Below are positions 2,524 to 60,676 of a stretch of DNA of 64,000 nt, one piece after another. The notes under the pieces were generated by a model. That model saw only the letters and a list, made by a program, of their open reading frames with translations. It did not search any database and was not told the DNA's origin. Source of the DNA: Gammaproteobacteria bacterium (GTDB lineage Bacteria; Pseudomonadota; Gammaproteobacteria; HK1); NCBI GenBank assembly GCA_049282355.1, contig JBAPTW010000152.1:1224-65223 (forward strand). The letters are read 5' to 3'. The position numbers were made by a program, and so were the translations under genes. Within the stretch, counting starts at the first letter, position 1. Each line of letters starts with the position of its first letter.

Positions 2524-2580
2524 CAAGTTGTTTTAGAAACTACGGCGCTTGTGCATAGCGGCGTTGCGCGGTGGCTCGCC
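2524..2580 (-). repeat. Partial copy (right-arm type, inverted) of the GAAGCTGTTTTAAAA MITE-like family
   Basis: CAAGTTGTTTTAGAAACTACGGCGCTTGTGCATAGCGGCGTTGCGCGGTGGCTCGCC aligns to the reverse complement of the right arm of the 40195-40337 copy. It starts directly after the TAG stop of the lipoprotein gene. Confidence 0.7.
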
Positions 2581-2628
2581 ATAGCTGGAGGGCTCCGGTC
2601 CCGGGGCCCTTTCCAGCGGGAGTTCGAC

Positions 2629-8100: not shown

Positions 8101-8795
8101 GTAGCGTAAGGGTCGGTTTTTAGGAAAACGTTTCCCGCCGGGGTCTTGATCTCGTACTTGTACAGCGCGCCATCGGCTACCCCGGGAATAAACAGCTCCC
8201 ATATTCCCGAGAGCCCCAGGAGCCGCATTTGATGTACTCGTCCGTCCCATTGGTTGAACGTTCCAACGACGCTTACTCGCGCTGCATTCGGGGCCCACAG
8301 CGAAAACCGCACGCCGTCCACGCCCCCCGCTCGTCGCGGGTGGGCGCCAAAAAGGTGGAACGCCTGGAGGTGCTCACCCGCCGCGAGCTTCGCCAGATCC
8401 TCTTCGGTGAAGGCCGATATCTTGATGGCATAGGGATCGTGTAACGTGTGCTCCGCACCCTGCTCATCGGTGACGATCAGGCAGTAACCGCTGCCGTTGA
8501 TGAGTCCTGGTAAGCTGCCCTCAAAGAGCCCTGAGGGGTGGATTTTCACCAACTGATGTTTGCGCGTCCCCTTTCCTTCTGTCCCCTGTGCCGCAAACAC
8601 CTCCTTGGCCTGGGGGAGGAAGACGCGAATGACCGTCCTGTCATCTTGCTCCGAATAGTGAGGACCCAGTACCGCGTGCGGTGCCTGATGCCGCGACTCG
8701 ATGATCCGTTGAACCTCTTCTTCAGCCATGCTCATCCTTACGCTGTGCTCCTGTCGTCTAAAGCGATCCTTCATGCGCGCCAGCCGCCTGCTCAT
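5136..8795 (-). CDS. glgB: Tandem-duplicated 1,4-alpha-glucan branching enzyme: degenerate truncated GlgB-like N-half fused to an intact GlgB
   Basis: 1219 aa. The C-half (about nt 5136-7417) has all GH13 regions: [32 protein letters not shown]. The N-half (about nt 7418-8795) aligns residue-by-residue to the GlgB N-domain, CBM48 and first half of the barrel. However DWVPAH is replaced by VVPGMG, GLRVDAV is altered to HVDAVLVD, and regions III/IV are absent. An alternative start is the ATG at 8735 (MSMAEEE). Confidence 0.9.
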   Translation of the reverse strand: MSRRLARMKDRFRRQEHSVRMSMAEEEVQRIIESRHQAPHAVLGPHYSEQDDRTVIRVFLPQAKEVFAAQGTEGKGTRKHQLVKIHPSGLFEGSLPGLINGSGYCLIVTDEQGAEHTLHDPYAIKISAFTEEDLAKLAAGEHLQAFHLFGAHPRRAGGVDGVRFSLWAPNAARVSVVGTFNQWDGRVHQMRLLGLSGIWELFIPGVADGALYKYEIKTPAGNVFLKTDPYATSIEASSNAAAIVCSLAQVHHWKDHSWLASRFERDVVQKAESAIYLFEIDLKAWASIAGEGAEGAHYRSLATPRLISEVKGKGFTHVFIPLSANPSSHDGFGYTPSRSCGTPADLMALIDFCHQSGLGVVVPGMGSSMPVDGTALNWFDGTRLYEDDTQRTGPRVRFDFARGEIKSAVLSSVTFWQHHYHVDAVLVDPLTAALHADCWREGHERPAPMLLIVRAERHPERLPEHEIQRLVHGRHRDPFAILGPHAGTDDNVQIVRAFLPRAEQAYVVMDGYPWLRHQLAKVDARGLFAGTIAPLGAEPKYQVQVLEPGGSSYTYRDPYAYRSWLFTLYDRQLFHEGNHYHVFRKLGAHPHVREGETGVSFAVWAPNAEGVSVVGSFNSWTGSQHQMKLHEDAGVWELFVPGLDEGELYKYEIRTAHGGLCLKADPYAFYCEVAPQTASIVCEVQGRYRWQDQDWMEKRAANDMWQSPVAIYEVHVGSWRRTADGQRLFYTALAERLVPYVKRLGFTHIELLPIAEHPYEPSWGYQISSFYAPTSRFGRPEDLMAFIDRCHQEGIGVILDWVPAHFPKDAHALGRFDGTSLYEHADPRKGEHRDWGTLIFNYGRHEVENFLIANAFFWLETYHFDGLRVDAVASMLYLDYSRLPGEWIPNRFGGNENLEAIEFLKHTNSIVHARFPGVMLMAEESTAWPRVSRPVEDGGLGFGFKWNMGWMHDVLTYMQERPEHRRQHYRRLTFGFHYAFEENFVLSLSHDEVVHLKRSLLEKMPGDEWQQFANLRLLYAFMYVHPGKKLLFMGGEIGQRREWNHAASVDWQLLDFELHRSLSRFVADLNGLYRSAPALHEVDFGREGFEGIDLDSPEQNVIAFLRKARDPRDTVLFVANFSAVSYASYRIGVPFPTFYRELFNSDAVAYGGRGRGLPAQGATAEEKAWHGYRFSLSLPLPPLTALVLQPLPAAIADTSGYSSIEHAGSDNGSASRGLS

Positions 8796-9651: not shown

Positions 9652-9922
9652 TGCGGGCAGTGATGTTCGACAATCGAGGCGAGGAGCTGAATACGAACCG
9701 AGGGAAAACTTCACCGAGCCCTATAAGCACCTCAGAGCTGCCTTAAAGAATGTCGCGAGTGCCGGCAAAGCCAAAGTGGGCGGCAAACAATCGGAGTCTA
9801 TGAAAAACGCCCATGAAGGCAACTCGTTACCCCCATGTCAGGTGAGCATTGCCCAGCCAACGAGAGTGACGCTGCCGAAGGTCCTTAGCAAGTCACTCCG
9901 AGAGGCTTGGAGCCTTTCAGTA

Positions 9923-13972: not shown

Positions 13973-15070
13973 ATGCGAGCCAAAAATATTTTCAACGTTT
14001 GGCCGACGCGATACTGGCAACGACTCGCTGACGACCGTGTGCAGTGTAATGTGTGTCCGCGCTTTTGCAAGCTGCACGAGGGGCAGCGGGGGCTTTGCTT
14101 TGTCCGCGCCAATCAGAACAACCGGATTGTGCTTACCTCTTATGGCCGCTCCAGCGGTTTCTGCATCGATCCCATCGAGAAGAAACCGCTCAATCACTTC
14201 CTCCCCGGAACGCCGGTTCTATCGTTTGGAACAGCAGGTTGCAACTTGGCCTGCAAGTTCTGTCAGAACTGGGACATCAGTAAGTCCCGCGAATTCGATA
14301 CCTTAGCCGATGAGGCGCCGCCTGAGATAATCGCCCGTGCTGCCCACGAGCTGGGATGTCGAAGCGTGGCTTATACCTACAACGACCCAGTCATTTTCAT
14401 GGAGTACGCTATCGACGTCGCTAGAGCTTGCCGAGAATACGGCATAAAGTCAGTGGCGGTCACTGCGGGCTACATGTGCGAGGAGCCGCGTGCGGAGTTT
14501 TACCAGTTCATGGACGCGGCAAATGTAGATTTAAAGGCGTTTACTGAGCGCTTTTATTGGAAGCTCACCGGTGGTCATTTGCAGCCGGTACTGGATACTC
14601 TGCTATACCTCAAGCACCATACCGATGTCTGGATCGAGCTCACTACGCTGCTCATTCCAGGCGAAAACGATTCGGACGAAGAGCTTGAGGCGGCAACCCA
14701 GTGGGTTGTGGAGAACCTAGGGCCCGATGTGCCTATGCATTTCACAGCCTTCCATCCAGATTGGAAAATGCTCGACAAGCAAGCTACCCCAGCTCAGACT
14801 CTGAGCCGAGCGCGCAGGATTGCGATGAGAAACGGCGTTCGGTATGCGTACACTGGAAATGTGCACGACGAAGAGGGCGGAAGTACGTACTGTCACCGCT
14901 GCGGCACGAAACTTATTGGGCGCGACTGGTATACCCTCACCCAATGGGGTCTAAGCGAAGACGGTCGATGCAACTCCTGCGGCACGGCATGCGTCGGTGT
15001 ATTCGAGGCAAAACACGGCAATTGGGGTGCCGCTCGACGCCCGGTGCGCCTTAAGGACTTTGCCGCCTAA
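13973..15070 (+). CDS. AmmeMemoRadiSam system radical SAM enzyme (AmrS-type)
   Basis: AGGAGG RBS. CNVCPRFCKLHEGQRGLCFVRAN auxiliary motif plus the GCNLACKFCQNWDIS radical-SAM motif. A C-terminal CHRCG...CNSCG is also present. Confidence 0.85.
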   Translation: MRAKNIFNVWPTRYWQRLADDRVQCNVCPRFCKLHEGQRGLCFVRANQNNRIVLTSYGRSSGFCIDPIEKKPLNHFLPGTPVLSFGTAGCNLACKFCQNWDISKSREFDTLADEAPPEIIARAAHELGCRSVAYTYNDPVIFMEYAIDVARACREYGIKSVAVTAGYMCEEPRAEFYQFMDAANVDLKAFTERFYWKLTGGHLQPVLDTLLYLKHHTDVWIELTTLLIPGENDSDEELEAATQWVVENLGPDVPMHFTAFHPDWKMLDKQATPAQTLSRARRIAMRNGVRYAYTGNVHDEEGGSTYCHRCGTKLIGRDWYTLTQWGLSEDGRCNSCGTACVGVFEAKHGNWGAARRPVRLKDFAA

Positions 15071-15124
15071 GAAGTTGTTTTAAAAATGTCGCGAGCGCCG
15101 GAGACGCTGGCGCACGATAGCGCG
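15071..15124 (+). repeat. Left-arm partial copy of the MITE-like family
   Basis: GAAGTTGTTTTAAAAATGTCGCGAGCGCCGGAGACGCTGGCGCAC begins immediately after the TAA stop (15068-15070). The remainder to about 15176 is degenerate. Confidence 0.75.
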
Positions 15125-15707: not shown

Positions 15708-15792
15708 GAGGTTGTGAAGAAACCGTAGCGAGAGCACGGTGAAGAGCCCTATCTGATAAGATAGTTATGAGAGGGTGTTTTCAAACAGCCTC
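15708..15792. mobile_element. Short variant (85 bp) of the MITE-like family, GAGGTTGTGAAG...CAAACAGCCTC subtype
   Basis: GAGGTTGTGAAGAAACCGTAGCGAGAGC...GGTGTTTTCAAACAGCCTC. Flanks are TCA (left) and TTA (right). The right TTA is the pcm stop codon. It is closely similar to the copy at 60581-60676. Confidence 0.7.
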
Positions 15793-16470
15793 TTAGTGGG
15801 TCGTCACCAGCTTGGAGAAACGCACCCGGAGAATTTCTTGGGTGGATGTCAACCCTTCCGCATCTTTTCGGACAAGCATTAACTGCTGCGCATCTTCGAC
15901 GCCGGCCGGAATCACCATTCTCCCACCCGCACTCAGCTGATGGAGCAGAGCCGTTGGAATTAGCTCTGGTGCGGCCGTCACAATCACTTTGTCGAAAGGT
16001 GCTTGGGCAGCCCAGCCGTGCGAACCGTCGCCGATCCTGTGCTCGACATTCGTACAACCCTGCTTGAGCAGGCGCGATGCCGCCTCGCGCGCCAGCTCTC
16101 CAATAATATCAACCGTGTAGACAGTTTTCGCCAGCTTAGACAAGATGGCTGCCTGATAACCAAGTCCGGTCCCAATCTCCAGAACGCGATCGTCCGGGTT
16201 TAGCTCCAAAAGATCCGTCATCAAAGCGACGATGAAGGGCTGCGATATGGTCTTTCCAAAGCCAATAGGCAGAGGATTGTCCATGTAAGCAAAGGCACGC
16301 AATTCCTCAGGAACAAACTCGTGCCGCGGCACGGTTCCCATAACCGCCATGACCCGATCGGCCAGCTCCGTTTTGCCGATCTCAGCACTTACGAGACTGG
16401 CGTGGAATGCAATCTGCTCCACCATAGCCTGACGCAGCGCGCTGAAATGCACATCCTGTGAATCGATCAT
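15793..16470 (-). CDS. pcm: Protein-L-isoaspartate O-methyltransferase
   Basis: 225 aa with the SAM motif VLEIGTGLGYQAAILS and the ISQPFIVALM motif. Confidence 0.95.
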   Translation of the reverse strand: MIDSQDVHFSALRQAMVEQIAFHASLVSAEIGKTELADRVMAVMGTVPRHEFVPEELRAFAYMDNPLPIGFGKTISQPFIVALMTDLLELNPDDRVLEIGTGLGYQAAILSKLAKTVYTVDIIGELAREAASRLLKQGCTNVEHRIGDGSHGWAAQAPFDKVIVTAAPELIPTALLHQLSAGGRMVIPAGVEDAQQLMLVRKDAEGLTSTQEILRVRFSKLVTTH

Positions 16471-16719: not shown

Positions 16720-16933
16720 GAAACTGTTGAAAAACCGTCACAAGCGCCGGCAGAGCAGGACGTACGGCGGCGAAACAAAATCATCAGGAACGATTTCGGA
16801 CAGTGACACGAGGCCCGAAGGGGCAAGTCCCAGAAATAGGGCGAGTAACCCAGACTGAGCCTGAGAGTATCAGGATTCCGAGCCGCCTCGCAATGCCGCT
16901 AGGGCACAAGCGCAGTCGTTCTTAAGCCAGCTC
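16720..16933. mobile_element. Long variant (214 bp) of the MITE-like family
   Basis: GAAACTGTTGAAAAACCGTCACAAGCGCCGG...GGAACGATTTCGGACAG...GAGCCGCCTCGCAATGCCGCTAGGGCACAAGCGCAGTCGTTCTTAAGCCAGCTC. Flanked by TTA on both sides (16717-16719 and 16934-16936). Same length and architecture as 35485-35698. Confidence 0.75.
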
Positions 16934-17415: not shown

Positions 17416-17664
17416 TGGGCCTGCGAGCGAAGCAGGATTGCGTCGCGATGCAGGTATTCACGGCGTGTCCCCACAAAGCCTATCCGGGACCACTCCCCTC
17501 AAGGATGATTCTACTAACGACGGTGTTAGCAATCCCGGCAAGCGCAACAGATTTTAAAATCTCCTCTCACGCCCGGTCGCGCATTGGCGCCGGACTTTAC
17601 ACACGACGTCTCTCCAGCGCATTGCAGCAAGCCGGATTTATAGAACGGTGGAAATGCAGTATCC

Positions 17665-18430: not shown

Positions 18431-18500
18431 CAATGAGGCCGATTTCTTGAGCCGCCGCCCACATCGCCATGCCAAGCACAGTGGGTTCTTAAACAGCTTC
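18431..18500 (+). repeat. Right-arm partial copy of the MITE-like family
   Basis: ATGAGGCCGATTTCTTGAGCCGCCGCCCACATCGCCATGCCAAGCACAGTGGGTTCTTAAACAGCTTC aligns to the right arm of the 40195-40337 copy. Confidence 0.7.
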
Positions 18501-21360: not shown

Positions 21361-21410
21361 AGAAGCTGTCTTAAAATCACAAGCGCCGGAGTCGCAAGGC
21401 GTGCGCTGAC
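21361..21410 (+). repeat. Left-arm partial copy of the MITE-like family, abutting the degP/Q-type start region
   Basis: GAAGCTGTCTTAAAATCACAAGCGCCGGAGTCGCAAGGCGTGCGC lies 8 nt from the protease ATG on the other strand. Confidence 0.7.
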
Positions 21411-21928
21411 CAACAATTGGCCGATGCAGCTATTTCACCAGGCACAACAGCCATCGCCTTCGCCGCACCATCGCTCCTCGCAAGCACTTTAGACATTGGT
21501 GTCCTTAGCGCGCGTGATGTAGCCCTGCCCTTGCCGCCCTCAGCACGGTGCGCCGAAATAGCCCTCCAGTAAAGGTGGCGCTAGATTACCACGGACGGCA
21601 ACATCAGCTTACACGAAAACCTGTCGTCAAAGAGCTATCCATAGTCATAATTGTTTAATGTCATCCTCTTCGCGTCAGCCCGTTTCGTCCTGAACCTGGA
21701 CTTGCCAGCCATGCGATCGCCAGCGGCGAAATCCTGCGCCATTGCCCGGCCGTTTGATCTTTTCAAAACCGCCTATTATCAAATCGCTTATAGTTTGGGT
21801 GCGGTGCTAACGTCATTCATTTAGCGACTCTGGAATCTGCACTTTTCGACGTAAACCGATATCATTTCCGACTGTCTTGTAATATCATCATCACACTAAT
21901 ATTGGTTGTTAACCGCATCAGGCACTAA

Positions 21929-22068
21929 GAAGCTGTTTAAGGAATATCGCAAGCGCCGGGGTCGCAAAGCTCACGATGGCAAGCCGACCGAAGTGTACAG
22001 GAAGTGCCGGGCATGGGTTGCGCCGCGCGGCACCATTATGACAACAGAGATGATTTTTAAACAGCTTC
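21929..22068. mobile_element. Complete MITE-like element (140 bp)
   Basis: GAAGCTGTTTAAGGAATATCGCAAGCGCCGGGGTCGCAAAG...GATGATTTTTAAACAGCTTC. Flanked by TAA on both sides (21926-21928 and 22069-22071). Confidence 0.8.
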
Positions 22069-22501: not shown

Positions 22502-22560
22502 AACCAACCCCAAGCCGACCCTCGCGAAAATGCTGACGTCATGCTTCGGTCGCTAAGCTG

Positions 22561-22604
22561 CGCCGAGGCGCTATGACAAGCCCAGTAGTTTTTTCAAAAG
22601 CTTC
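22561..22604 (+). repeat. Degenerate right-arm fragment of the MITE-like family
   Basis: CGCCGAGGCGCTATGACAAGCCCAGTAGTTTTTTCAAAAGCTTC compared with CGCAACGCCGCTATGGCAAGCGCAGTAATTTTTAAAACAGCTTC. Confidence 0.55.
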
Positions 22605-25832: not shown

Positions 25833-25890
25833 GGCGCTGTTTTAAAGAGATCGCGAGCGCCGGAGTCGCAAGGCGGGACGAAGCACCTAC
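25833..25890 (+). repeat. Left-arm partial copy of the MITE-like family
   Basis: GGCGCTGTTTTAAAGAGATCGCGAGCGCCGGAGTCGCAAGGCGGGAC, preceded by TTA. Confidence 0.7.
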
Positions 25891-28328: not shown

Positions 28329-28509
28329 CTCGCGCGATGTGTGCGCTCCCATAGAGGTGCCGGAGGAACACTGGGTGTTCAATCCCTTGGTATCAGCAGG
28401 ATCAGCTCACGCCGCTTTGAGCACGTGTGGTGTCGTTATGGAAGCACGCCAAATAGGATCGAGCTGAGCAACAGCAAATCGGCATAAAAAATGCTCATTC
28501 CAAATGATT

Positions 28510-28566
28510 GCGCGCCACCGCGTAACGTCACTGGGGCAAGCGCAGTAATCTTTAAAGAACAGCTTC
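28510..28566 (+). repeat. Right-arm partial copy of the MITE-like family immediately upstream of rfbA
   Basis: GCGCGCCACCGCGTAACGTCACTGGGGCAAGCGCAGTAATCTTTAAAGAACAGCTTC is followed by TAAGGAGAGAGGCATG, the rfbA SD and start. Confidence 0.75.
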
Positions 28567-28579
28567 TAAGGAGAGAGGC

Positions 28580-29455
28580 ATGAAGGGTGTCGTTCTGGCG
28601 GGCGGTTCTGGAACCCGCCTCTATCCCCTAACCCGTAGCGTCAGCAAACAGCTGCTGCCAGTCTACGATAAGCCTATGATCTATTATCCCCTTTCCACCC
28701 TCATGCTCGGGGGACTGCGGGAGATCTTGATCATCTCAACTCCCTGGGACCTTCCCAGCTTCCAGCGCTTGCTCGGCAGCGGCGAACAGTGGGGGCTCGA
28801 GCTGCATTATGCCGAACAGCCGCAACCGCGGGGTCTTGCGGAAGCTTTTCTCATCGGCCAGAAATTCATTGCTGGTGAGCCGTGCTGTCTGATTCTCGGA
28901 GACAACATTTTCTATGGCCATGGGCTTACCGAAGTGCTGCAACAGGTCGCGACACGTACCCAAGGAGCCACCGTCTTCGCCTACCGTGTCAACGCCCCCG
29001 AGCGCTATGGCGTAGTGGAATTCGACGAAGCCGGAAAACCTCTTCGAATTCAGGAAAAGCCCATCGCTCCACCGTCTCACTATGCGGTCACCGGCATCTA
29101 TTTCTACGACGATCAGGTGGTTGATATCGCCCGCTCACTTCGCCCCTCCGATCGCGGCGAGCTTGAAATTACCGATATTAATCAGACCTATCTCGACCAG
29201 GGTCAGCTCCAGGTCGAGAAGCTGGGTCGCGGTATTGCGTGGTTGGATACCGGCACCCATGAATCTTTGCAGCAAGCTTCGAACTACATCGCGGCTATCG
29301 AAGTGCGACAGGGGCTCAAAGTCGCTTGCTTGGAGGAAATCGCCTATCGCATGGGCTACATATCGCGCGAGCAGCTCGAATACCTGGCCGCTGAGCTGAT
29401 GCAGAATGGTTATGGCCGGTATCTTATGGAAATTCTCGAGGAGGATGAGACGTGA
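28580..29455 (+). CDS. rfbA: Glucose-1-phosphate thymidylyltransferase
   Basis: [18 protein letters not shown]...[17 protein letters not shown]...GLAEAF. Confidence 0.95.
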
Positions 29456-31397: not shown

Positions 31398-32399
31398 TTG
31401 AAAGCGGCTGTAAGATCCTCTCTCGGAACCCCGCAAGTCCTGCAGCTTGAAGACGTGCCGCAACCTTCACTGCGCGCCGACCACGAAGTCCTTGTGCGCC
31501 TCAAGGCTGCAGGCGTTAATCCGCTTGATACCAAGCTTCGCGCCAAGCCAAGCCCCTATCCATTGCCAACCCCCGTGGTATTGGGCTGTGACGGCGCGGG
31601 TATCGTGGAAGCTGTTGCCACATCCGTAGACAAGTTCAAACCTGGCGACGAGGTTTACTTTTGCCGATGCGGTTTTGGTGACAGCACAGGAACCTACGCC
31701 GAATACGTCGTTGTTGAGGAACATTTGCTGGCAAAGAAACCAAAACGGCTCGACTTCGTAACGGCAGCGGCGGCGCCACTCGTACTCATCACGGCTTGGG
31801 AATCCCTACACGACCGGGCTCATATCGCACAGCAGCAGGCTGTGCTCATTCACGGCGGAGCCGGTGGCGTAGGTCACGTGGCGGTGCAACTCGCCCATCA
31901 GGCAGGTGCTCGCATTGCCACTACCGTCGGCTCTGCCTCAAAAGCCACCTTTACCGAAAGCTTGGGGGCTGAGCGATCAATCCTCTACGAGACTGAGGAT
32001 TTCGTTGAAGTCATTATGACATGGACCAAAGGCCAAGGCGTGGCCATGGCGCTCGATACCGTTGGCGGCGCCACATTTCAACAGACCTTTGCGGCAGTGC
32101 GCTGCTATGGGGATGTGGTGACGCTACTCCAGCCAGGAAATGATGTCGACTGGACGGTAGCAAGACAGCGTAATCTTCGTATCGGATTCGAGCTTATGCT
32201 GTTGCCATTGCTCATCGATATACCGGACGCTCAGCAACATCAGGGCGAAATTTTAAGGCAGTGCGCCGAGCTAATCGATGCGAGGAAACTCAACATCCAT
32301 GTCGCCGAGGTATTTCCCCTCGCCGAGGCGGCTAAAGCCCATGAATTCCTGGAGCGAGCAGCTCCCATGGGGAAGGTGGTATTGAGCATCGATGACTGA
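31398..32399 (+). CDS. Zinc-type alcohol dehydrogenase / quinone oxidoreductase (MDR) family protein
   Basis: MKAAVRSSLGTP...GVNPLDTKLR...VLIHGGAGGVGHVAVQLA. TTG start at 31398. Confidence 0.85.
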   Translation: MKAAVRSSLGTPQVLQLEDVPQPSLRADHEVLVRLKAAGVNPLDTKLRAKPSPYPLPTPVVLGCDGAGIVEAVATSVDKFKPGDEVYFCRCGFGDSTGTYAEYVVVEEHLLAKKPKRLDFVTAAAAPLVLITAWESLHDRAHIAQQQAVLIHGGAGGVGHVAVQLAHQAGARIATTVGSASKATFTESLGAERSILYETEDFVEVIMTWTKGQGVAMALDTVGGATFQQTFAAVRCYGDVVTLLQPGNDVDWTVARQRNLRIGFELMLLPLLIDIPDAQQHQGEILRQCAELIDARKLNIHVAEVFPLAEAAKAHEFLERAAPMGKVVLSIDD

Positions 32400-32450
32400 G
32401 AAGCTGTCTGAAGAATGCCGCGCGCCGGAGCCGCAAGGCGCACTCAGCCC
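32400..32450 (+). repeat. Left-arm copy of the MITE-like family starting directly after a TGA stop
   Basis: GAAGCTGTCTGAAGAATGCCGCGCGCCGGAGCCGCAAGGCGCAC. A degenerate right arm may extend to about 32508. Confidence 0.7.
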
Positions 32451-32620: not shown

Positions 32621-35071
32621 TCAGGCTTTTGGCTTGCGGCCCTTCGTTGTCGGTGAAGCTGCCACCTCTGCATCATCAGATTTCGTCTGCGCCACTCCGC
32701 TTGTCGGGGGCTTATCAGCGCCTTCTTGCGTCTCGTGGTCTTCCTTCAACTGCGACCGCAATTCAGCCAGCTCAGAGCGCAGCACTTCGACCTCTGCCTC
32801 TGCCGGGGTGTCTGCTAGGTGCTTTTGTTCGGCAGGGATCGCTTCCGGCTCCCGTTGCAGGACGATGCCGGCCAGTGGTGGCAATGTAATCGACAGCGAA
32901 TAGGGCCGGTCCATCCACGGCATCTCCTCGGCGATGAGCGAAACTCCACCGTTTCCAACATTGCTGCCGCCATAGAACTCCGAGTCGGAATTGAAGATTT
33001 CTCGATAGGTGCCGGGACTTGGTATCCCGATACGGTAGCCATAGCGGGGTACCGGCGTGAAGTTCACCACCACGACCAAGAATTCATTATCGCTTTTGCG
33101 CAGATAGCTGAGAATCGACTGTTGACCGTCATGACAATCGATCCAATCAAATCCTTGCCACTCGAATTCATAGCAATAGAGCGCCACTGAGCGGTGATAG
33201 AGCGCATTCAGATCTTTGACCAGCCGCTGTACTCCACTGTGGAACGGGTATTGGACCACGTACCAGTCGAGGACCCTGGCGCTGTCCCACTCCGTCCCTT
33301 GACCAAACTCTGTGCCCATGAACAGTAGCTTCTTTCCGGGATGGGTGAACATGTACGTGTAGAGCAGGCGTAAGTTGGCAAAGCGGCGCCACTCATCCCC
33401 GGGCATTTTATTGAGCATAGACGCCTTTCCGTGCACCACCTCATCGTGAGAAAAGGGCAGCAGGAAATTCTCCGTAAAAGCGTACAGCATGCTAAACGTC
33501 AGCAGGTCGTGGTGGTACTGACGGTACACGGGATCGTGAGACATGTACCGCAGGGTGTCGTTCATCCAGCCCATATTCCACTTCAGGCTGAACCCAAGTC
33601 CCCCCACATAGGTGGGACGGGTCACTTGCGGCCAAGAGGTGGACTCCTCGGCCATCACCAATACCCCGGGATGCTGCCCATGAATCACGGCATTGAGCTC
33701 GCGAAGAAACTCCATCGCCTCAAGATTTTCCCGGCCGCCGTATTTATTGGGAATCCACTCTTCCCGCGAATAATCGAGATACAGCATCGACGCTACGGCA
33801 TCCACTCGCAGCCCATCGAGATGAAATTCCTCCACCCAAAACACGGCACTGGAAAGCAGAAACCCGCACACCTCGTGGCGTCCGTAGTTATAAATCAAGG
33901 TGGACCAGTCCAAGTGCTCGCCCTGGCGCGGATCCGCATGCTCATAAACGGGCTCACCGTCGAACCGGGCGAGACCATAGGCATCTTTGGGAAAATGTGC
34001 CGGTACCCAATCGAGGAAAATCCCGATGTCATGCTGATGACAGTAATTAACGAAATAGCGGAAATCATCCGGCTTACCAAAGCGGCTTGTGGGTGCGAAA
34101 TAGCCGGTGCTCTGATATCCCCAGGAAGCATCAAAGGGATGCTCCGTGATGGGCAGCAACTCAATATGGCTGAATCCCAGGTCCTTGACATAGGGTACGA
34201 TCTGTTCGGCAAGCTCCCGGTAGGTCAAGAATTCGCCTTCCGGGCCTCTTTGCCACGATCCCAAGTGCACCTCATAGATTGACATGGGCGCGTGGAGCCA
34301 ATCGCGGGATGCGCGTTTTTCCAGCCACGCCTCATCGGTCCAGGCAAACGAGGTTTCATCTACCGCGATTGAGGCTGTGCTCGGACGCATCTCAAACCGC
34401 TGACCGTAGGGATCGGTCTTGAGAAACACCATACCTGAATTGCGGTTACGAATTTCGAACTTATAAATAAGCCCCGCCTCAAGTTCAGGTATAAAGAGTT
34501 CCCAAACACCACTGCCTCCGCGCACTCTCAAGGGATGTGCACGACCATCCCAGTGGTTAAAATCACCCACCACGCTGACCCGCTCCGCATTGGGAGCCCA
34601 TACGGCAAACCCGATGCCGGCTATGCCGTCCACCACTCGCGGGTGTGCCCCAAGGAATCGATAGGCATGCCAGTGGCGTCCCTCGTTGAAAAGGTGCAGA
34701 TCAAAATCGCTCACCTGCGGCAAGAAAGTGTAAGGATCGTGGACGATGTGCTCATGATGTCCCGCGTCCCGCCAAATGAAGCGATAGTGAGCAGGAAGCC
34801 CATCGGGATCACCGCGCCACTCGAAAATGTCGGTATTGGGAATGCGTTCCATCGGCAACATCCCCTCGGCGATGGTCACATCGATGCAGTTTGGGATGTT
34901 GGCCCTGACCACGATGCCATCGCCTTCTTGATGGCGACCGAGCACCTCGAACGGATCGTGGTGCTTCGCTTCTGCGATTCGTCGCAAGTCTTCTGTGAGG
35001 TTGGGAATGTTCATTCGTTGGATCTCTATTGTGTTTTCGCGCTGCTCCCTCTGCAGATGCCTCGAGAGCAC
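32621..35071 (-). CDS. glgB: 1,4-alpha-glucan branching enzyme with a 77-aa charged C-terminal extension
   Basis: GH13 regions [25 protein letters not shown] and SHDEVVH, plus a CBM48 segment. The tail [10 protein letters not shown]...[21 protein letters not shown]...KGRKPKA maps to nt 32621-32854. The likely true start is the ATG at 35014 ([10 protein letters not shown]). Confidence 0.95.
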
Positions 35072-35484
35072 AAGACAGCCCGCAAGCTCCTTATCCGCTC
35101 ACCCATCAATGGTCATGGCAACAGCCCGCGCGCGGATTTGCCAACACGTCCTCTGGTCGGGAGAACTTGATCTATGGCGCAAGTTTCGTTGCGCCTGCGA
35201 CCCAAATAGCGACGTTTTGCCCCGCCCACACAAAAGGTAAAGTCTCGCCTTCGATAGGTGTCAGCCACCTCTTGCAACCCGGCTGGCGACTCAACTGTCT
35301 TATGCGCGTCCTTTCTTGTTGTGACAAACCCACAAATGGTATTGAATTAACAGTATTTTATTCGGTATGATGATTTGCTGCAATCATTGCATCCGGCATG
35401 TTCCTGAGTTGCACCATTTAGGGAGTGGACTGAACGATAGGTTAAGCTAGCTTGCTCGTTCCTATCGCAAACGTCACAAGCTAA

Positions 35485-35698
35485 GAAGCTGTTCTAAAAA
35501 TATCGCAAGCACCGGAGTCACAAGGCACACGGTGGCGACAAAATCGTCTGGAACGATTTCGAACAGCTGTAAGCTGGCCCTGAAGAGGTGAGCCCCAAGG
35601 AGGGGGCGAATAACAACCGGTGTGTACGTGGGGTTCATGAGCTTGTGAGCCGCCACGCCATACCGCTATGGCAAGCGCCGTAAATTTTGAAACAGTTC
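35485..35698. mobile_element. Long variant (214 bp) of the MITE-like family
   Basis: GAAGCTGTTCTAAAAATATCGCAAGCACCGGAG...GGAACGATTTCGAACAGCTG...GAGCCGCCACGCCATACCGCTATGGCAAGCGCCGTAAATTTTGAAACAGTTC. TAA on both flanks (35482-35484 and 35699-35701). Confidence 0.8.
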
Positions 35699-35981
35699 TA
35701 AGCAGGCAGGCGTTAGATTCGACGTCGAGGTGTCGAGGTCAGGGACCGCGGGCATGTTGGTTTGGCGCACTGCCATAGGCTAGGCCCACACCGGCTAATC
35801 TAGTTAGGTGCAAAAAGGACTGAAGCGGCGCGGCAGCGGAAAAAACATGAGGTCAGGCAGCAAACCTTCTTGAGCTGCCGATGACACCAACAACAAATCC
35901 TGTACCCTGTACCCCACCGGCAGCATGCGCCCGTGGGCGGCGAATCCCCACGATGAAATCAGAAAACCTGGAGTATGGTGC

Positions 35982-38827: not shown

Positions 38828-38901
38828 GAAGCTGTTTTAGAAATGTCGAGAGTGCCGGGCAATGCCGCTATGACAAGCGCACTCGTTTTCAAGACAGCTT
38901 A
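38828..38901. mobile_element. Internally deleted (74 bp) copy of the MITE-like family
   Basis: GAAGCTGTTTTAGAAATGTCGAGAGTGCCGGGCAATGCCGCTATGACAAGCGCACTCGTTTTCAAGACAGCTT. Left and right arms are joined without the central segment. Confidence 0.7.
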
Positions 38902-38989: not shown

Positions 38990-40171
38990 ATGGCCGAAAT
39001 CTTCCATGCCTTAGCCCTGAACCTGCATCAACCCGAAAACAATCTAGCCACACTTTGGGCACAAAACCAAGCGGAAGCCCTGGAAATCTTACGCGCCCTC
39101 GATCGGCTCTCGAAGGTGCTCGCATCCCATGACGATCGCGCACAAGTTCATCTCGCCATCTCCGGCACGCTGTTAAACTCGTTGGCCAGTGCCGACTTCC
39201 AGGAGCTTGTCTCTGAGTATCTCGACTGTCACGGGTTCCTGCGGGCAATCCAAAACCGGCGGATTTTCGAGATCCTCGGTACCGCCTATTATCACCCCGT
39301 GCTTCCCATCATTCCGCCCATTGATTGGGATGAGCACCTTACCCGCTGGGTTAATCTCGCACGCTACCTATTTGGCCGCACGCGCTTTGAAGGATTTTGG
39401 CCACCGGAGATGGGTTTCTGCATGGAGCTCATTCCACATTTGAAGCGCCTAGGCTATCGCTACGCGCTAGTGGACAGCGAGCACGTCGAGCCACTGACGC
39501 CGATGAACCGAGCAGAGCTACGCTACCTTCCCCACATCGCCGAGTTTGGCGGCGATGAGATGGTGGTCATTGTGCGTGACCGAGAGCTTTCCAACGCCAT
39601 CTTAGCAGACATGAGCTGTGATCAGTTCCAAGAGACGGTCCGCAAACAGACGAGCGAATGCTCAGCACCGGCAATGGTAACGCTGTGCGCCAACGGCGAT
39701 AACGGTGAGCGGTTTCGAAGCGCCGATCCGCAGGTAAATTTCTGGAGCAGCTTTTACCTGCCACTGTTGGAAAGTAGCGACACCCGCTCTCCCCTGCGGG
39801 CAGTTTTTGTTCACGACTACCTGAATCGCTATGGTACTTACGGCCGCGTAAAGGTCGGACCCGGCGCCTGGAATACGCCCTGGCACGACGGCAAAGATTT
39901 CGTGCAGTGGACGGGATCGGCGGCACAGCGAGAGGCATTAACTCGCTTGGATCAGGTCAGCCAGGCATTCCACACCGCAAGGGCAAACGTGATCGGCATA
40001 AGGGCAGAGAGCGACGAGATTCGCCACCAGCTTGAGGAGGCCCTCCGGCGAATTTTGAGAGCAGAGACAAGCTGTCATTTTTTCTGGGGCGAAGCTTGGG
40101 TCCCGCGCTGCCACCGCGATCTGGATGAGGCCTGTGCCTGCTTGGAACGCGCTTGGAACGCGCTCCGCTGA
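38990..40171 (+). CDS. GH57 family glycoside hydrolase
   Basis: LNLHQP, GTAYYHPVLPII, FWPPEMG (nucleophile Glu region) and CANGDNGERF motifs, in the order typical of GH57. Confidence 0.8.
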   Translation: MAEIFHALALNLHQPENNLATLWAQNQAEALEILRALDRLSKVLASHDDRAQVHLAISGTLLNSLASADFQELVSEYLDCHGFLRAIQNRRIFEILGTAYYHPVLPIIPPIDWDEHLTRWVNLARYLFGRTRFEGFWPPEMGFCMELIPHLKRLGYRYALVDSEHVEPLTPMNRAELRYLPHIAEFGGDEMVVIVRDRELSNAILADMSCDQFQETVRKQTSECSAPAMVTLCANGDNGERFRSADPQVNFWSSFYLPLLESSDTRSPLRAVFVHDYLNRYGTYGRVKVGPGAWNTPWHDGKDFVQWTGSAAQREALTRLDQVSQAFHTARANVIGIRAESDEIRHQLEEALRRILRAETSCHFFWGEAWVPRCHRDLDEACACLERAWNALR

Positions 40172-40194
40172 TATTTGCAAGTAAGTGACACTTA

Positions 40195-40337
40195 GAAGCT
40201 GTTTTAAAAATGTCGCGAGCGTCGACAGAGCAAGGCGCACGGCGGCGAGAAACCGGAGTGTACAAGGGAGTACATGAGGATTTTGAGCCGCCGCGCAACG
40301 CCGCTATGGCAAGCGCAGTAATTTTTAAAACAGCTTC
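40195..40337. mobile_element. Complete MITE-like element (143 bp), reference copy
   Basis: Perfect 16-bp termini GAAGCTGTTTTAAAAA / TTTTTAAAACAGCTTC. TTA lies on both flanks (40192-40194 and 40338-40340). The right TTA is the stop codon of the debranching enzyme gene. The element sits between convergent genes. Confidence 0.85.
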
Positions 40338-42248
40338 TTAACCCTGCCACAGCGCACAACTGAGTGGCGGAAGCTCGAGCCGACCACCCGTGCAAGGGAG
40401 TCGGGCACTGGTCAGTCCTCCGGGCTCGAAGCGCTCATGGTCGGCAAGTTGCCGCCACTGAGTCACATCGATATCTTCCAACGAGAGATGGACCGTCTCA
40501 TGGTGCGGATTAATGGCGAACAACAGCCGGTGCTGTCCCTTGCTGTAATCAGCATTGAACAAGACAGCCATGGCTGAACCCTGGGCGGCACCAAAGTAGC
40601 GGAAATAGTCATCCGAGGGGGGAGAATCCAGGCGAAACAGCCTGCCACTTTCCGATAGGCGGAATCGTATCCAGCGTCGAAAGTACTCGTGCGAGCCGGA
40701 GAATACGAGTAACCGATGATAATCGATGGCGTTCTCCTCCGGCGCGCGATAGCTGTTGTTTATGCCTCGCTTCGTACGCAGAGTATCTTGCCCGGCGGAC
40801 AACATGGGTATACCTAACGAGCACATCAAGACCGCCAACATGAGGTGAGTACGCCGCCGATCGTTCGCAGTGGGGTGGTCGCCCCGATGATGAGGGTTTT
40901 CCGTGATCTTGTCGATCCAGCAGAGATCGTCGTGGGATTCCACGTAATTGACGCTCTGTGCCGGCCAGGCGCTCAAGTGCGCGAGGCTTCCGGCCATGAA
41001 ATAGCGCAGTCCTGCCTGATTCCCCTGTCCCATGATGTAGTCGCGCAAAAACTCGCGATAGCCGTCGTTCCAGGAAGCGAAACCGCTCGATTTCAATGCC
41101 AAGGCAATATGACCCCTGAAGCTCCATGGCTCAGCGATGAGGATGACTGAGGGTTTGACACTCTTGAGCGCGGCCTCGATTTCCTTGAGCACCTTGACGC
41201 CGATTAGCTCGGCCAGATCGAAGCGAAATCCATCGATGTCGTAGGTCTCAATGAAATGAATGAGGCTGTCTATGATGAGCCGACGCCCCATTGGGGTATC
41301 ACAGCGCAAATCATTGCCACAACCGCTCCAGTTGCTAAGGTTCCCGCTCTTATCGAGTTGGAAGTAATAATGCTTATCGATGAACAAGAGGTGGTTTGGG
41401 TCACCGCTGTGGTTGTAAACTACATCCATGATGACCGCTATTCCTTGGTGATGAAAAGCGGCCACTAAGGCTCGGAATTCCTCCACCTGTGAGCCAAGCT
41501 CCGGTACCATTGCATAGCTGCTTTCCGGAGAAAAAAAGTTCACAGACATGTAGCCCCAGTGATAGTCATCCCGGGAATCGCAGCCTCCGAACTGCTGGAC
41601 CGGCAGCAACTCAACGGCGTTTACACCGAGGCTGCGCAGATAGGAACCCTGCGCCTCTACCCATCGCTGCAATCCGGTGAAACCGAGGCGCTCCTCGTCC
41701 TCCAAGGGTACGGGCGCATAGCGGATGAGATCGCGAACGTGCGCTTCTAGCACCACAAGATCGTGCCAGCAGGGCGGTTGGAACGACGGTTCGTCACGCT
41801 TCAGGCGCCGCCGATCCCAGATGATGCCTGGGCCACCCGGTCCCACGGTTGCCACAGCATAGGGATCGAGTATCCGGAACTCACCGTCAAAATGGCTAAA
41901 GGCATCCTGATCCAATGAATCCAAACGATAGTAGTAATACCAACCATGGAGGTTGGCGGGATAGCTTGCCTCCCAAACTCCGCTGTCGAGTCGGCTAAGC
42001 CGCTGTACCTTGGGCTCCGGACTATCCAAGTGTCTGAAAAAAAATACTCTGACGACCGCCGCCCGCGGTGCAAAGAGACGAAACACGGTGGTGTCTCCCC
42101 TCACGGAGGCACCAAGCCAACGATCGCTTCCTAGCCTTAATAGCGCCCCGCTCTCATCGAGCAGTTCTGCCTGCTCAACAAGCTCGGACAGCGATATTTT
42201 CTTGTCCACCTTAGCTCGCTGGCGTTCGTCCATCGACACCTTAGCCAT
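40338..42248 (-). CDS. Pullulanase-type GH13 debranching enzyme with N-terminal CBM48
   Basis: DVVYNHSG, GFRFDLAELIG, LIAEPWS, VNYVESHDD. The ATG at 42248 (MAKVSMDERQ) has AGGAGG 9 nt upstream. The ORF track's longer start at 42269 is GTG. Confidence 0.85.
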   Translation of the reverse strand: MAKVSMDERQRAKVDKKISLSELVEQAELLDESGALLRLGSDRWLGASVRGDTTVFRLFAPRAAVVRVFFFRHLDSPEPKVQRLSRLDSGVWEASYPANLHGWYYYYRLDSLDQDAFSHFDGEFRILDPYAVATVGPGGPGIIWDRRRLKRDEPSFQPPCWHDLVVLEAHVRDLIRYAPVPLEDEERLGFTGLQRWVEAQGSYLRSLGVNAVELLPVQQFGGCDSRDDYHWGYMSVNFFSPESSYAMVPELGSQVEEFRALVAAFHHQGIAVIMDVVYNHSGDPNHLLFIDKHYYFQLDKSGNLSNWSGCGNDLRCDTPMGRRLIIDSLIHFIETYDIDGFRFDLAELIGVKVLKEIEAALKSVKPSVILIAEPWSFRGHIALALKSSGFASWNDGYREFLRDYIMGQGNQAGLRYFMAGSLAHLSAWPAQSVNYVESHDDLCWIDKITENPHHRGDHPTANDRRRTHLMLAVLMCSLGIPMLSAGQDTLRTKRGINNSYRAPEENAIDYHRLLVFSGSHEYFRRWIRFRLSESGRLFRLDSPPSDDYFRYFGAAQGSAMAVLFNADYSKGQHRLLFAINPHHETVHLSLEDIDVTQWRQLADHERFEPGGLTSARLPCTGGRLELPPLSCALWQG

Positions 42249-42290
42249 TCGCGCTAACCTCCTGTCCACCTGCCTAAATGCATCCGTTGA

Positions 42291-52150: not shown

Positions 52151-52180
52151 GACCAAGTGCAGTAGTTTTTAAAACAGCTT

Positions 52181-52181
<1 letters not shown>
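52151..52181 (+). repeat. Right-end fragment of the MITE-like family overlapping the pgi stop codon by 1 nt
   Basis: ACCAAGTGCAGTAGTTTTTAAAACAGCTTC compared with GGCAAGCGCAGTAGTTTTTAAAACAGCTTC at 59379-59408. Confidence 0.75.
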
Positions 52182-53830
<1,649 letters not shown>

Positions 53831-53902
53831 CTCAATTCCCCCCTCATGGTGGTGTTATTAACTTTTGTTTTGCTCGGCTATGGCAATTGATAAAACAGCC
53901 TC

Positions 53903-55420
53903 CTAGCCCACCTCACGGCCATAGAGCCGCACCGCGCGACGCATCCGCGAGGCCAAGTCCGCCGGTATCTCTTGCCAGCTAAAGCGCCATCGCCAATTTC
54001 CCTCATCCACTCCGGGAGTGTTCATCCGCCCGCCTGCGTCCAGACCGAGCACATCCTGCATCGGCACAATAGCGAGCTTTGCCACGGACATGAGCGCGGT
54101 GCGAATCATTGACCACGGCATGTCGGCAGCCGCATCTCCGAGATAGTCGAGTACATAGCTTCGCTCTTCCTCCGCGAGCTCCTGATACCACCCAAGTGTG
54201 GTGTTATTGTCGTGGGTGCCGGTGTACACCACACTATTCGGAATATGGTTATGGGGCAGATACGGGTTGTCGTGGTTTCCGTCAAAAGCGAATTGCAGCA
54301 CCCTCATCCCCGGAAACTTGAACTGATCTCGCAGGGCTGTGACTTCCGGTGTTATGATTCCAAGGTCTTCTGCCACAAGGCGCAGCGGATCGAAAGCTTG
54401 CTGTAGGGTGCTGAACAGCTCCAGCCCCGGTGCTTTCACCCATTGACCTTTAAGTGCTGTGTCCTCTGTACCGCAGATCTCCCAGTGCGCCTCAAAACCT
54501 CGGAAGTGATCGATGCGCACCAGATCAAACAGCATCAAATGATTTTTCACCCGCTCGCGCCACCACCAGTAATCGTCTTGCCGCATCCGGTCCCAATCGT
54601 ACAACGGGTTGCCCCAGCGCTGGCCGGTAGCGGAGAAGTAATCGGGCGGTACGCCCGCAACGACCAACGGCCGCCCGACATCGTTGAGTCGAAAATAATG
54701 GCGACGGGCCCACACGGCGGTGCTATTCTCGGCCACGAAAATGGGCATATCGCCAAACAGCAAAATCCCACGGTCATTGGCATAACGTTTCAGCGCGCGC
54801 CATTGCCGAAAGAACACAAACTGTTCAAAGCGCTGCTGTTCCATCGCATCGGCCAGCCGGGCGCGCGCATCCTCCAGTGCCCGCGGCTCCCGGTCCCGTA
54901 ATGACGCCGCCCAGTCCCACCAGGGAGCGCCGCCATATTCTTCTCGAAGCGCCTGAAACAGCGCATAGTTCTCCAGCCAATAAGCAGACTTAGCCTTGAA
55001 CTGCTCATAAGCTATGCGGTCGGCTGCACTGGCCCTCGTCAGAAAGCCGAAGCACCCTTGGGCAAGCCGCGAGCACCTATAAACACACGCTTCCGCCGCT
55101 GCCTTTCGCGCCTCGGGCTCGTCGTCTTTATCAAGCCATCCTTCGGACTCGAGCAGCTCAAGGCTAATCAGCCGATCATTGCCCGCATGAATGGATTGGC
55201 AAGCATAGGGAGAGAGATTTCCATGGGTAGGGTTGACCGGGAGCATTTGCCACACGGTACAGCCGCTAGCGGCAAGAAAGTCGACGAACTGATACGCGCT
55301 CGGCCCTAAATCACCATTATCGAGGCGTCCTGGAAGTGAGGTGGGATGTAGCAGGACCCCGGCCCGGCGCCGATCGAGCACCGGCGAAGGTGCTCGGCTC
55401 GCAACTCTCGAGCTACCCAT
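53903..55420 (-). CDS. malQ: 4-alpha-glucanotransferase (amylomaltase, GH77)
   Basis: RRAGVLLHPTSLPG, GDMPIFVA, GVPPDYFS..GQRWGNP, RIDHFRGF and YTGTHDNNT. The ATG at 55420 has GGGAG 8 nt upstream. The longer start at 55471 is TTG. Confidence 0.92.
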   Translation of the reverse strand: MGSSRVASRAPSPVLDRRRAGVLLHPTSLPGRLDNGDLGPSAYQFVDFLAASGCTVWQMLPVNPTHGNLSPYACQSIHAGNDRLISLELLESEGWLDKDDEPEARKAAAEACVYRCSRLAQGCFGFLTRASAADRIAYEQFKAKSAYWLENYALFQALREEYGGAPWWDWAASLRDREPRALEDARARLADAMEQQRFEQFVFFRQWRALKRYANDRGILLFGDMPIFVAENSTAVWARRHYFRLNDVGRPLVVAGVPPDYFSATGQRWGNPLYDWDRMRQDDYWWWRERVKNHLMLFDLVRIDHFRGFEAHWEICGTEDTALKGQWVKAPGLELFSTLQQAFDPLRLVAEDLGIITPEVTALRDQFKFPGMRVLQFAFDGNHDNPYLPHNHIPNSVVYTGTHDNNTTLGWYQELAEEERSYVLDYLGDAAADMPWSMIRTALMSVAKLAIVPMQDVLGLDAGGRMNTPGVDEGNWRWRFSWQEIPADLASRMRRAVRLYGREVG

Positions 55421-55726
55421 CGCCGCAACTCCCGGCACTGCACCCGAGACAGCGAAATTCGCTAAACCCAAGCAGCCGCCCGACGTTAAGGCCGGTATCC
55501 TTGGGCGATATGGGATCAGGCATGATGGAAACTTGGCCTATTTTTGCTTATTGGTAGAGGCTTACGTGGCCGGCCACGTAAGCCTCAGAGAAACGCCATC
55601 CCTTCACCCACCGACTATGCTGGCTAAGGGAAAGTGACTACGCGGAGTTCCTTTAGTCGGCGCCTCGCAGCCTCCAAACGTCGTGCGACAATACTCTCTT
55701 GCCCATGACTGCCGCGTTGGACGCGG

Positions 55727-59265: not shown

Positions 59266-59408
59266 GAAGCTGTTTTAAAAATGTCGCGAGAGCCGGGAGA
59301 CGCAGGCGCACGGCGGCGAGCAACCGGAGTGTACATGGGAGTACATGAGGATTGCGAGCCAGCGCGCAACGCAGCTCAGGCAAGCGCAGTAGTTTTTAAA
59401 ACAGCTTC
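59266..59408. mobile_element. Complete MITE-like element (143 bp)
   Basis: Same length as the 40195-40337 copy and collinear with it along its whole length, with scattered substitutions in the arms (by-eye alignment; identity not computed). Flanked by TCA on both sides (59263-59265 and 59409-59411). The right TCA is the stop (TGA) of the Sel1-repeat gene. Confidence 0.85.
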
Positions 59409-59837
59409 TCAGGCGTTGAATCCTGCCTCATCATAAAGGCGCTTGGCTTGCTCCGGATCCCGTTCAACTCCGCGGCCCTGCTCGTACATGATAGCAAGTG
59501 TCGTCATGGAGCCGACCAAGCCCTGGTCCGCCGCCCGGCGAAACCACACGGCAGCCTCCGCCTCGTTTTGCTCGGTGCATTCACCTTCCAGGTACATGAA
59601 GCCAAGTCCATGTTGAGCAAGCCCATATCCTTGCTTCGCCGCAGCTCGCATCCACTGGTACGCCATCGCTTCGTTTGGTACGACACCGAGGCCATTTTGG
59701 AACATGATAGCCAAGCGAAACTGCGCTTCCGGGCGACCGCTTTCCGCAAGCGGTGAAAGCAGTTGCATGGCCCGCCGAAACTCCTTCGCCTCAAAGGCAG
59801 CGACGCCACTGGCAAAGTCCATATCCACATCAGGCAT
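59409..59837 (-). CDS. Sel1-repeat (TPR-like) protein
   Basis: Repeated A..W...AA.QG...AQ..LG.MY..G.GV modules. ATG at 59837 (MPDVDMDF). Confidence 0.85.
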   Translation of the reverse strand: MPDVDMDFASGVAAFEAKEFRRAMQLLSPLAESGRPEAQFRLAIMFQNGLGVVPNEAMAYQWMRAAAKQGYGLAQHGLGFMYLEGECTEQNEAEAAVWFRRAADQGLVGSMTTLAIMYEQGRGVERDPEQAKRLYDEAGFNA

Positions 59838-60067
59838 AATTGCTTTCCGCTTATCTGTATTGGAACTCTGTATTGAGACAGCAGGGCACTTAAGATCGCG
59901 CCATACCACGCCTATTTTTTGTTTTATTTTGCCAGATTTGGGCAACCCGTGCGAATTGATAAAGATTGTAAGGAATGAGAAGCTGACTGTACCTTCACGC
60001 GCATGTCACGGCCTGTCCGAAAAGCGGCTAAAGCGACTCCTGCTACAATGCATGCGGTTTACGCGAC

Positions 60068-60580: not shown

Positions 60581-60676
60581 GAGGGTTGTGAAGGAACCGT
60601 AGCAAGCAGCCCGAGAGCAAGACCGATGGCGGCGCGCCCTTCTTCTGCCAAGCAGAGTAATTTCTCAAACAGCCTC
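60581..60676. mobile_element. Short variant (96 bp) of the MITE-like family, GAGGGTTGTGAAG...CAAACAGCCTC subtype
   Basis: GAGGGTTGTGAAGGAACCGTAGCAAGCAGC...GTAATTTCTCAAACAGCCTC followed by TAA. It lies between the convergent NUDIX and EF-G genes. Confidence 0.7.

Follow-up and report, generated by a model that had tools for sequence, protein, structure and literature searches.

The 143-bp repeat at 40195-40337 of the DNA analyzed here belongs to a family that, judged from its sequence, is a real small non-coding transposon (a MITE), displaying every sequence-level trait by which prokaryotic MITEs are recognized (for these criteria, see the review PMC10969869). The element is very probably mobilized by a transposase of the IS5 family. 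This kind of transposon is, of course, already known; the family is a new, genus-restricted member of it, an IS5-family MITE, and on the sequences searched it is confined to one uncultured gammaproteobacterial genus.

The window, by which is meant the whole stretch of 64,000 nucleotides (C152:1224-65223), comes from a genome (G000) of 4.70 Mb in 511 contigs, with ~56% G+C. A genome search supplied two MAGs from other species of the same genus (G001 and G002) for comparison. All of the genomes compared are short-read MAGs.

Copies within the window

The flagged copy (40195-40337, plus strand, 157 bits against the family profile) is full length and has perfect 16-nt terminal inverted repeats (TIRs), starting with GAAGCTGTTTTAAAAA and finishing with its exact reverse complement. 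A TTA target-site duplication (TSD) stands at 40192-40194 and 40338-40340. The copy lies between two convergent genes, a GH57 gene (38990-40171) and an alpha-amylase/CBM48 gene (40338-42269, minus strand), and the right copy of its TSD is the TAA stop of the latter. With two mismatches or fewer, the 16-nt terminus occurs 10 times in the 64-kb window, where 0.06 matches are expected.

An initial annotation of the window had listed eight complete copies, and all of these were recovered with the same coordinates and lengths. Its five claimed TSD pairs are likewise exact: TTA/TTA at the flagged copy, TCA/TCA at the second full-length 143-bp copy (59266-59408, plus strand), TAA/TAA at a diverged full-length copy of 140 bp (21929-22068, plus strand, 78 bits), and TTA/TTA and TAA/TAA at two 214-bp variants of the class with an extra internal module (16720-16933 and 35485-35698, both plus strand). 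At 59266-59408, the right copy of the TSD doubles as the TGA stop of a Sel1-repeat gene (59409-59945, minus strand). The other three copies have no clean TSD. One is an internally deleted copy of 74 bp (38828-38901, plus strand) with degenerate CGA/TAG flanks. The others, with no strand assigned, are a divergent GAGGTTGTGAAG subtype of 85 bp (15708-15792, TCA/TTA flanks), whose right flank coincides with the TAA stop of pcm (15793-16470, minus strand), and a divergent GAGGGTTGTGAAG subtype of 96 bp (60581-60676, CCT/TAA flanks). These two subtype copies are too divergent to be detected by the profile built from 143-bp copies (E<1e-3).

Ten one-armed fragments had also been listed, and seven of them were found by an nhmmer profile of the 143-bp copies. 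Here, the solo B (right-type) arms are at 2524-2582 (minus strand, profile hit from 2525, adjoining the TAG stop of ORF 1876-2523), 18445-18500 (plus strand, TCA flank), 22556-22604 (plus strand, degenerate), and 28504-28566 (plus strand, TAA flank, with an ATG at 28580 lying 13 nt downstream). The solo A (left-type) arms, all on the plus strand, are at 15071-15124 (adjoining the TAA stop of a radical-SAM gene, 13973-15070), 21362-21417, and 25833-25875 (TTA flank, profile hit from 25836). The remaining three are short termini confirmed by direct reading, again all on the plus strand: a solo A arm at 32400-32444, adjoining the TGA stop of a zinc-dependent dehydrogenase gene (31398-32399); a short B-arm terminus at 52151-52181, with a perfect 16-mer at 52166-52181 and a TA-G junction that gives pgi (52181-53830, minus strand) its TAG stop; and a possible degenerate B-arm terminus at 53873-53902, adjoining the TAG stop of ORF 53903-55471 (minus strand). 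The profile search adds one fragment to the earlier list, a weak solo A arm at 9737-9800 (plus strand, E 8e-4).

That all copies are intergenic agrees with the list of ORFs and with the Pfam-supported neighbors. The statement that the window encodes no transposase holds for the two families scanned, DUF4096 and DDE_Tnp_1. As a separate observation, the solo B arm at 28504-28566 ends in TAAGGAGAGAGGCATG (28504-28595), and the ribosome-binding site of the gene that starts at 28580 is thus either provided by the flank of this arm or next to it.

Genome-wide census and anatomy

In the genome as a whole, the terminus occurs 238 times with two mismatches or fewer, versus 3 times in a reversed-sequence control, and 425 times with three or fewer, versus 37 in the control. 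An nhmmer search of the genome returned 308 hits, which collapse into ~280 loci that cover 27.5 kb, or 0.6% of the genome.

When termini are paired, the lengths peak sharply at 143 bp, with 22 copies of just this length and 41 of 130-150 bp. In a second class, of ~214-222 bp, the extra internal module is present, and copies with internal deletions form a tail over 22-75 bp. The TIRs are 16-17 nt long, and their variants (GAAG... and GAGG...) covary at the two ends. Beyond the TIR the arms differ, arm A continuing ...AAAAATGTCGCGAGCGCCGG and arm B, read inward, ...AAAAACTACTGCGCTTGCC. No conserved ORF was found within the copies. Pairwise identity among the 143-bp copies has a median of 84% and a maximum of 98%, and no two copies are identical; current activity in G000 is therefore unproven.

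The two arms are not equally represented. Among classified termini, 177 are B and 112 are A; among profile hits, 149 are right-only and 67 left-only. Solo arms thus tend to be B arms.

Duplication of a TNA target

If these repeats are mobile, of course, they should have left the footprints of insertion. TNA stands on either side of 48 of the 62 elements that have two ends and measure 60-260 bp, and in 39 of these 48 the two triplets are identical, compared with a permutation mean of 14.8 (p<=1e-5). Identical TNA flanks were also found at 43 of the 79 paired termini of G000 and at 18 of 24 elements in loci from the two congeners. This census, which the initial annotation had proposed, thus gives consistent TNA duplications and favors mobility.

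The target itself can be read from 424 oriented termini. TNA precedes 76% of these, as TAA (133), TTA (97), TGA (58), or TCA (35). Position -4 is C in 60% of the 424, which indicates a palindromic target preference, C-TNA-G. A duplication of the full 5 bp, CTNAG, was considered and rejected; the empty sites described below show that TNA alone is duplicated.

These flanks bear on which transposase superfamily is responsible. The element might be a MITE moved by IS630/Tc1-mariner enzymes, which target TA, or by bacterial PIF/Harbinger-like enzymes (DDE_Tnp_4), which target TWA; the central TA-like context and the predominance of TWA flanks (of 323 TNA flanks, 230 are TAA or TTA) would suit such an enzyme. 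The middle base of the TSD is, however, any of the four and not A or T alone; TGA and TCA are often seen (93 of 323), with the whole triplet duplicated. Further, the insertion sequences (ISs) that share the terminus encode DUF4096 and DDE_Tnp_1 and match NF033580, not DDE_3 or DDE_Tnp_4. Mobilization by another superfamily is accordingly regarded as highly unlikely, and an IS5-family enzyme is preferred.

Empty sites in congeneric genomes

Insertion can also be seen where a related genome has the unoccupied site. At 59266-59408, the context in the window is ...gcaTCA, the MITE, then TCAggcg. Both G001 and G002 are empty here, reading ...TCAgg(c/t)g with a single TCA, and this single triplet is the TGA stop of the Sel1-repeat gene (minus strand). 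Conversely, three elements found in the relatives' MAGs (L006, L025, and L035) have orthologous sites in G000 (on C300, C223, and C349), all of which are empty; the G000 sites carry one triplet each, TTA, TTA, and a CAA in place of TAA. In total, then, four orthologous sites are empty with a single TNA (or CAA). The presence/absence comparison suggested by the initial annotation thus finds the congeners polymorphic, with empty sites that hold a single TNA.

At the flagged site of the window, G002 has no element; identity over the flanks is 89-90%, although the junction is divergent and the neighboring gene is three codons longer. In G001, the same site holds a different copy of 87 bp, whose TAA TSD is displaced by 1 nt (G001:C33 ~17470-17560, L072/L074). 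The same amylase/CBM48 stop codon was therefore hit independently in two species. The site of the 74-bp copy (38828) is occupied in G000, holds a larger diverged copy in G002, and is empty in G001. The 214-bp copy at 35485-35698 is absent from that position in G001, where other copies lie elsewhere in the same intergenic region. That region (G001:C33 21852-23009, orthologous to 35068-35840 of the window) is ~385 bp longer in G001 and contains a GAGGTTGTGAAAAAACC-type element and a further two MITE copies, none at the position of the window's copy.

The distribution of the family is narrow. When 185,579 species were scanned for exact 23-mer matches, the element turned up in just two further MAGs, named "uncultured Thiotrichales bacterium SRP072547_co1_415" and "Gammaproteobacteria bacterium SH-MAG129." With one mismatch or fewer, termini number 139 in G000, 344 in G001, and 51 in G002, a 7-fold difference in copy number among the three congeners. 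Fifty other genomes of the same family have 0-1 termini each, which is the control level.

Insertion at stop codons

The examples in the window are part of a general pattern. A contact with a stop codon was counted where the flank is TAA or TGA, or where a TAG is formed at the junction, as xTA-G. By this measure, 76 of 425 termini (18%) adjoin the stop of an ORF of at least 100 codons, versus 4% of random TNAG sites; for ORFs of at least 150 codons, the values are 16% and 2%. Pfam-supported examples in the window are the radical-SAM, Zn-dependent dehydrogenase, pgi, pcm, amylase-type, and Sel1 genes.

Insertions at stop codons would be tolerated because the duplication regenerates the stop. 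We infer that the occupancy of stop codons reflects this tolerance, rather than targeting or a function that depends on orientation. An orientation-specific function at gene ends was considered and rejected; the arm facing the gene is random (in two-armed copies it is A in 9 cases and B in 7, and all termini together give an odds ratio of 1.0).

Among oriented flanks taken by themselves, TAA or TGA is seen at 191 and TTA or TCA at 132; termini more often adjoin stop-type triplets.

Hairpin structure and orientation

The MITE is predicted to fold into a long hairpin, with an energy of -65.2 kcal/mol on the plus strand (z = -6.9) and -61.3 kcal/mol on the minus strand (z = -7.2). Over 41 copies, 91% of cells are paired, whereas sliding the partners lowers this to 32-46%. 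Between subfamilies, both sides have changed at two neighboring pairs of the internal stem (consensus 56-57/88-89), C-G becoming G-U or G-C, and A-U becoming C-G. Such double changes hint that the hairpin may be maintained.

A structure this strong invites another reading, in which the repeat is a REP/BIME-like structural palindrome, fixed in place or spread by a RAYT (HUH/Y1) or by recombination, and serving as an RNA or DNA structure such as a 3' stabilizer of mRNA, a terminator, or a protein-binding site. The pairing across copies, the double changes, and the many copies at gene 3' ends would all be at home in such a reading. Duplications of 3 bp and empty sites with a single TNA are, however, foreign to REPs, and a DDE IS of this genome shares the termini seen here. 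Nor do the gene-end copies behave as a directional signal would, since either arm faces the gene at random. The window gives no Rfam match at gathering thresholds, and a search for intrinsic terminators gave one weak internal hit, which is what shuffled sequence is expected to give. REPs and BIMEs are, moreover, not 143-bp units with TSDs and empty sites. The REP-like motif that the initial annotation had kept as its alternative is largely refuted by the TSDs and the empty sites, and the broader structural reading is extremely improbable. A mobile MITE remains the reading that is carried forward here.

The orientation of the copies is, in addition, uneven and is correlated with the local GC skew. 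Of 258 loci, 162 have the C-rich strand running from arm A to arm B (p=5e-5), and so do 31 of the 41 two-armed copies that are intact (p=0.0015). In the window itself, the copies at 13 of 14 loci lie on the plus strand, whose GC skew is negative throughout.

Candidate partner insertion sequences

A MITE has no transposase of its own, and a partner was accordingly sought in the same genome. G000 is rich in ISs, with 46 matches to DDE_Tnp_1. Two of its ISs, both of the DUF4096 type, are preceded by MITE-like termini; these are called here IS-A and IS-B. The transposase-encoding parent with the same termini that the initial annotation had called for has its counterpart in these data, as such an IS with TNA flanks is present in G000 and in a congener.

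IS-A is ~875 bp long, with GAAGCTGTTTGGAAA termini and TAA flanks. In G000, its left end is seen as TAA followed by GAAGCTGTTTGGAAAGTCGCC (C387:2155 and C177:2422), and its right end as ...GAGAGTTTCCAAACAGCTTC followed by TAA (C89:1-123). At least two copies are thus present, with the interior missing from the bin because contigs break inside IS-A; more generally, IS interiors are poorly assembled here because all of the genomes are short-read MAGs. The copy in G001 (C138:1-868, L064) is 94% identical and lacks the last 5 nt, giving a full length of ~873 bp.

The read-through product of IS-A has 261 amino acids and matches NF033580, "IS5 family transposase," over positions 1-257/258 with 199.7 bits (cut-off 110). 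It also matches PF13340, PF01609, and PF13586 (DUF4096 and DDE_Tnp_1), and its alignment with intact proteins of 262-266 aa, each encoded by a single ORF, runs from end to end. The closest intact relative has 262 aa and is 82% identical; its IS (L092) is 876 bp long, with termini GAAACTGTTTGGAAA and GAAGCTGTTTGGAAA and a TAA/TAA TSD. A relative in Thiorhodospira sibirica has an IS of 888 bp with termini GAGGCTGTTTGGAAA and GAAGCTGTTTGGAAA. Since each of these relatives has two differing termini, the GAAG/GAGG variation that separates the MITE subtypes also occurs within single ISs. The terminus of IS-A differs from that of the MITE at TIR positions 11-12 and 16.

The reading frame of IS-A is peculiar. 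In all copies seen, its ATG is followed by a run of A6 or A7 that leaves the transposase frame out of phase (C387:2215-2235, the last 80 nt of C177, and L064 ~790-810); A5 or A8 would be in phase, and the intact relative L092 has an in-frame A7. The G001 copy, which is the only near-complete one, has a second frameshift after DRDGA. The offset at the A-run could represent slippage-dependent expression, phase variation, or decay.

IS-B is a degraded copy (C237:~1-825, minus strand), beginning TCA and then GAAGCTGTTTTAAAAAT. Here, the terminus is that of the MITE over 17 nt, and a frameshifted DUF4096/DDE gene follows. A second copy of this C237-type IS was not found in 53 genomes of the family. 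A full-length parent with an intact ORF and the exact MITE terminus was not found.

Three other candidate origins were considered and set aside. Long pairs of termini (722 and 1097 bp, in a search up to 1.5 kb) are each two separate elements that flank ordinary small genes, and not a parent. A perfect terminus on C113, 500 bp from a DDE ORF, reflects an unrelated IS inserted in a 214-bp MITE variant; at C113:15-150 of G000, a 214-bp-type MITE is broken after ~130 bp by this IS, whose DDE_Tnp_1 ORF has 451 aa. Last, an origin of the MITE by internal deletion of an IS is not claimed, as the similarity of the MITE to either IS stops at the TIR.

The mobilizing enzyme would come either from the intact-looking IS with GGAAA termini or from the decayed IS with the exact MITE terminus. 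Between the two, the balance tips modestly toward IS-A, rather than the decayed IS-B lineage, as the source of the transposase.

The condition of these ISs gives substance to one further alternative, that the MITE is real but now extinct in G000, its copies being fossils and the similar IS no more than a coincidental relative, unable to mobilize them. Each candidate IS appears defective in those copies that were seen, the MITE has left many remnants with one arm or an internal deletion, and no two copies are identical, the median identity being 84%. Against this are the lineage-specific insertions between species that are ~80-90% identical in the flanks, the 7-fold difference in copy number among congeners, and the best pairs of copies, which are 98% identical. 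Extinction is judged to be unlikely, although it is an alternative to be taken seriously; a MITE served by an IS5-family enzyme is preferred.

A model for mobilization

In the model that these comparisons suggest, the element would be a non-autonomous MITE, without coding capacity, moved in trans by an IS5-family transposase. This enzyme would be of the IS1031-group type, with DUF4096 and DDE_Tnp_1 domains and ~262 aa, and would recognize the GAAGCTGTTT...AAA termini that are common to the MITE and the IS. Transposition would proceed by a DDE mechanism, in a cut-and-paste or a copy mode, with insertion at 5'-TNA-3', preferably within C-TNA-G, and duplication of 3 bp. As TAA, TGA, and the junction TA-G are all stops, an insertion at a stop codon would regenerate the stop and might therefore be tolerated. 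Tolerated insertions of this kind would explain why so many copies are joined to gene 3' ends.

Comparison with known systems

Elements of the IS1031 group prefer 5'-TNA-3' and have exclusively a 3-bp direct repeat; one of these, ISLrh, is ~857 bp long with a TIR that begins GAACCTGTCT... (PMC12016507). A single ORF and an insertion site of three nucleotides are features of the group (PMC2516522). The partner IS described here resembles the group in its ~875 bp, in the single DDE transposase of ~262 aa of its intact relatives, and in a 3-bp TNA duplication, and the TIRs begin GA(A/G) in both, GAACCTGTCT in ISLrh and GAAGCTGTTT in the partner IS and the MITE. Judged by these published traits (size, the single ORF of intact relatives, and 3-bp TNA), IS-A fits the IS1031 group. 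The IS427 group suits it less well; its elements in Paracoccus are of similar size, but have mostly 2-bp repeats and two overlapping ORFs (PMC3281130). Two differences from the IS1031 group should be noted. The element in the window is a non-coding 143 bp whose interior is unrelated to that of the IS, and the partner IS copies seen here carry the frame-disrupting A6/A7 run after the ATG.

The initial annotation had associated the TNA duplication with IS5-family (IS1031-type) and with PIF/Harbinger transposases. The first association stands, on the NF033580 match, the size, the TSD, and the single ORF; the second is not supported, as the partner transposase has DUF4096 and DDE_Tnp_1. Eukaryotic PIF/Harbinger-Tourist MITEs are similar in having a 3-bp TSD centered on T-A and a distant DDE kinship to IS5. 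Harbinger, however, has a TWA TSD and needs a second, Myb-like protein, whereas here N is any base, TGA and TCA duplications are frequent, and the transposase is bacterial.

Among bacterial MITEs, the Correia elements of Neisseria and the RUP elements of Streptococcus pneumoniae are abundant, 100-200 bp long, and possess TIRs and long hairpins; like the family described here, they are largely intergenic, lie near gene ends, and vary in presence between strains (PMC10969869). They duplicate TA, whereas this family duplicates TNA, and they have another type of IS as partner, IS630-Spn1 in the case of RUP. The ERIC/IRU and REP/BIME repeats of enterobacteria are also intergenic and palindromic, and are often transcribed at the 3' ends of genes. 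REPs, however, are 20-40 nt long, have no TSD, and are tied to a RAYT; this family has units of 143 bp, TIRs, 3-bp TSDs, and a DDE IS as partner.

Significance and further observations

The practical consequence for annotation is that the ~280 loci (0.6% of the genome) should be masked, as otherwise they give rise to spurious small ORFs. The assembly is probably fragmented in part by these repeats and their partner ISs. The 7-fold spread of copy number among three congeners makes the family usable as a strain or population marker in an uncultured lineage. It also offers a clean natural example of how a TNA-specific transposase of the IS1031 type would let a MITE colonize stop codons without harm to genes. 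No new kind of biology is opened by this, and a specialist will not be surprised.

It is conceivable, but rather improbable, that the family is more than selfish DNA. Here, insertion or retention would be coupled to the direction of replication, a reading that starts from the C-rich bias of the A-to-B strand, or the hairpin would be under selection, as the 91% pairing and the double compensatory changes might suggest, with copies fused to stop codons acting as RNA structures of host genes at 3' ends.

Last, an unconnected repeat was noticed in the window. This is an 86-nt direct repeat with 79% identity (6153-6238 and 33767-33852), lying within the minus-strand ORFs 5136-8795 and 32621-35071, which are probably paralogous genes.
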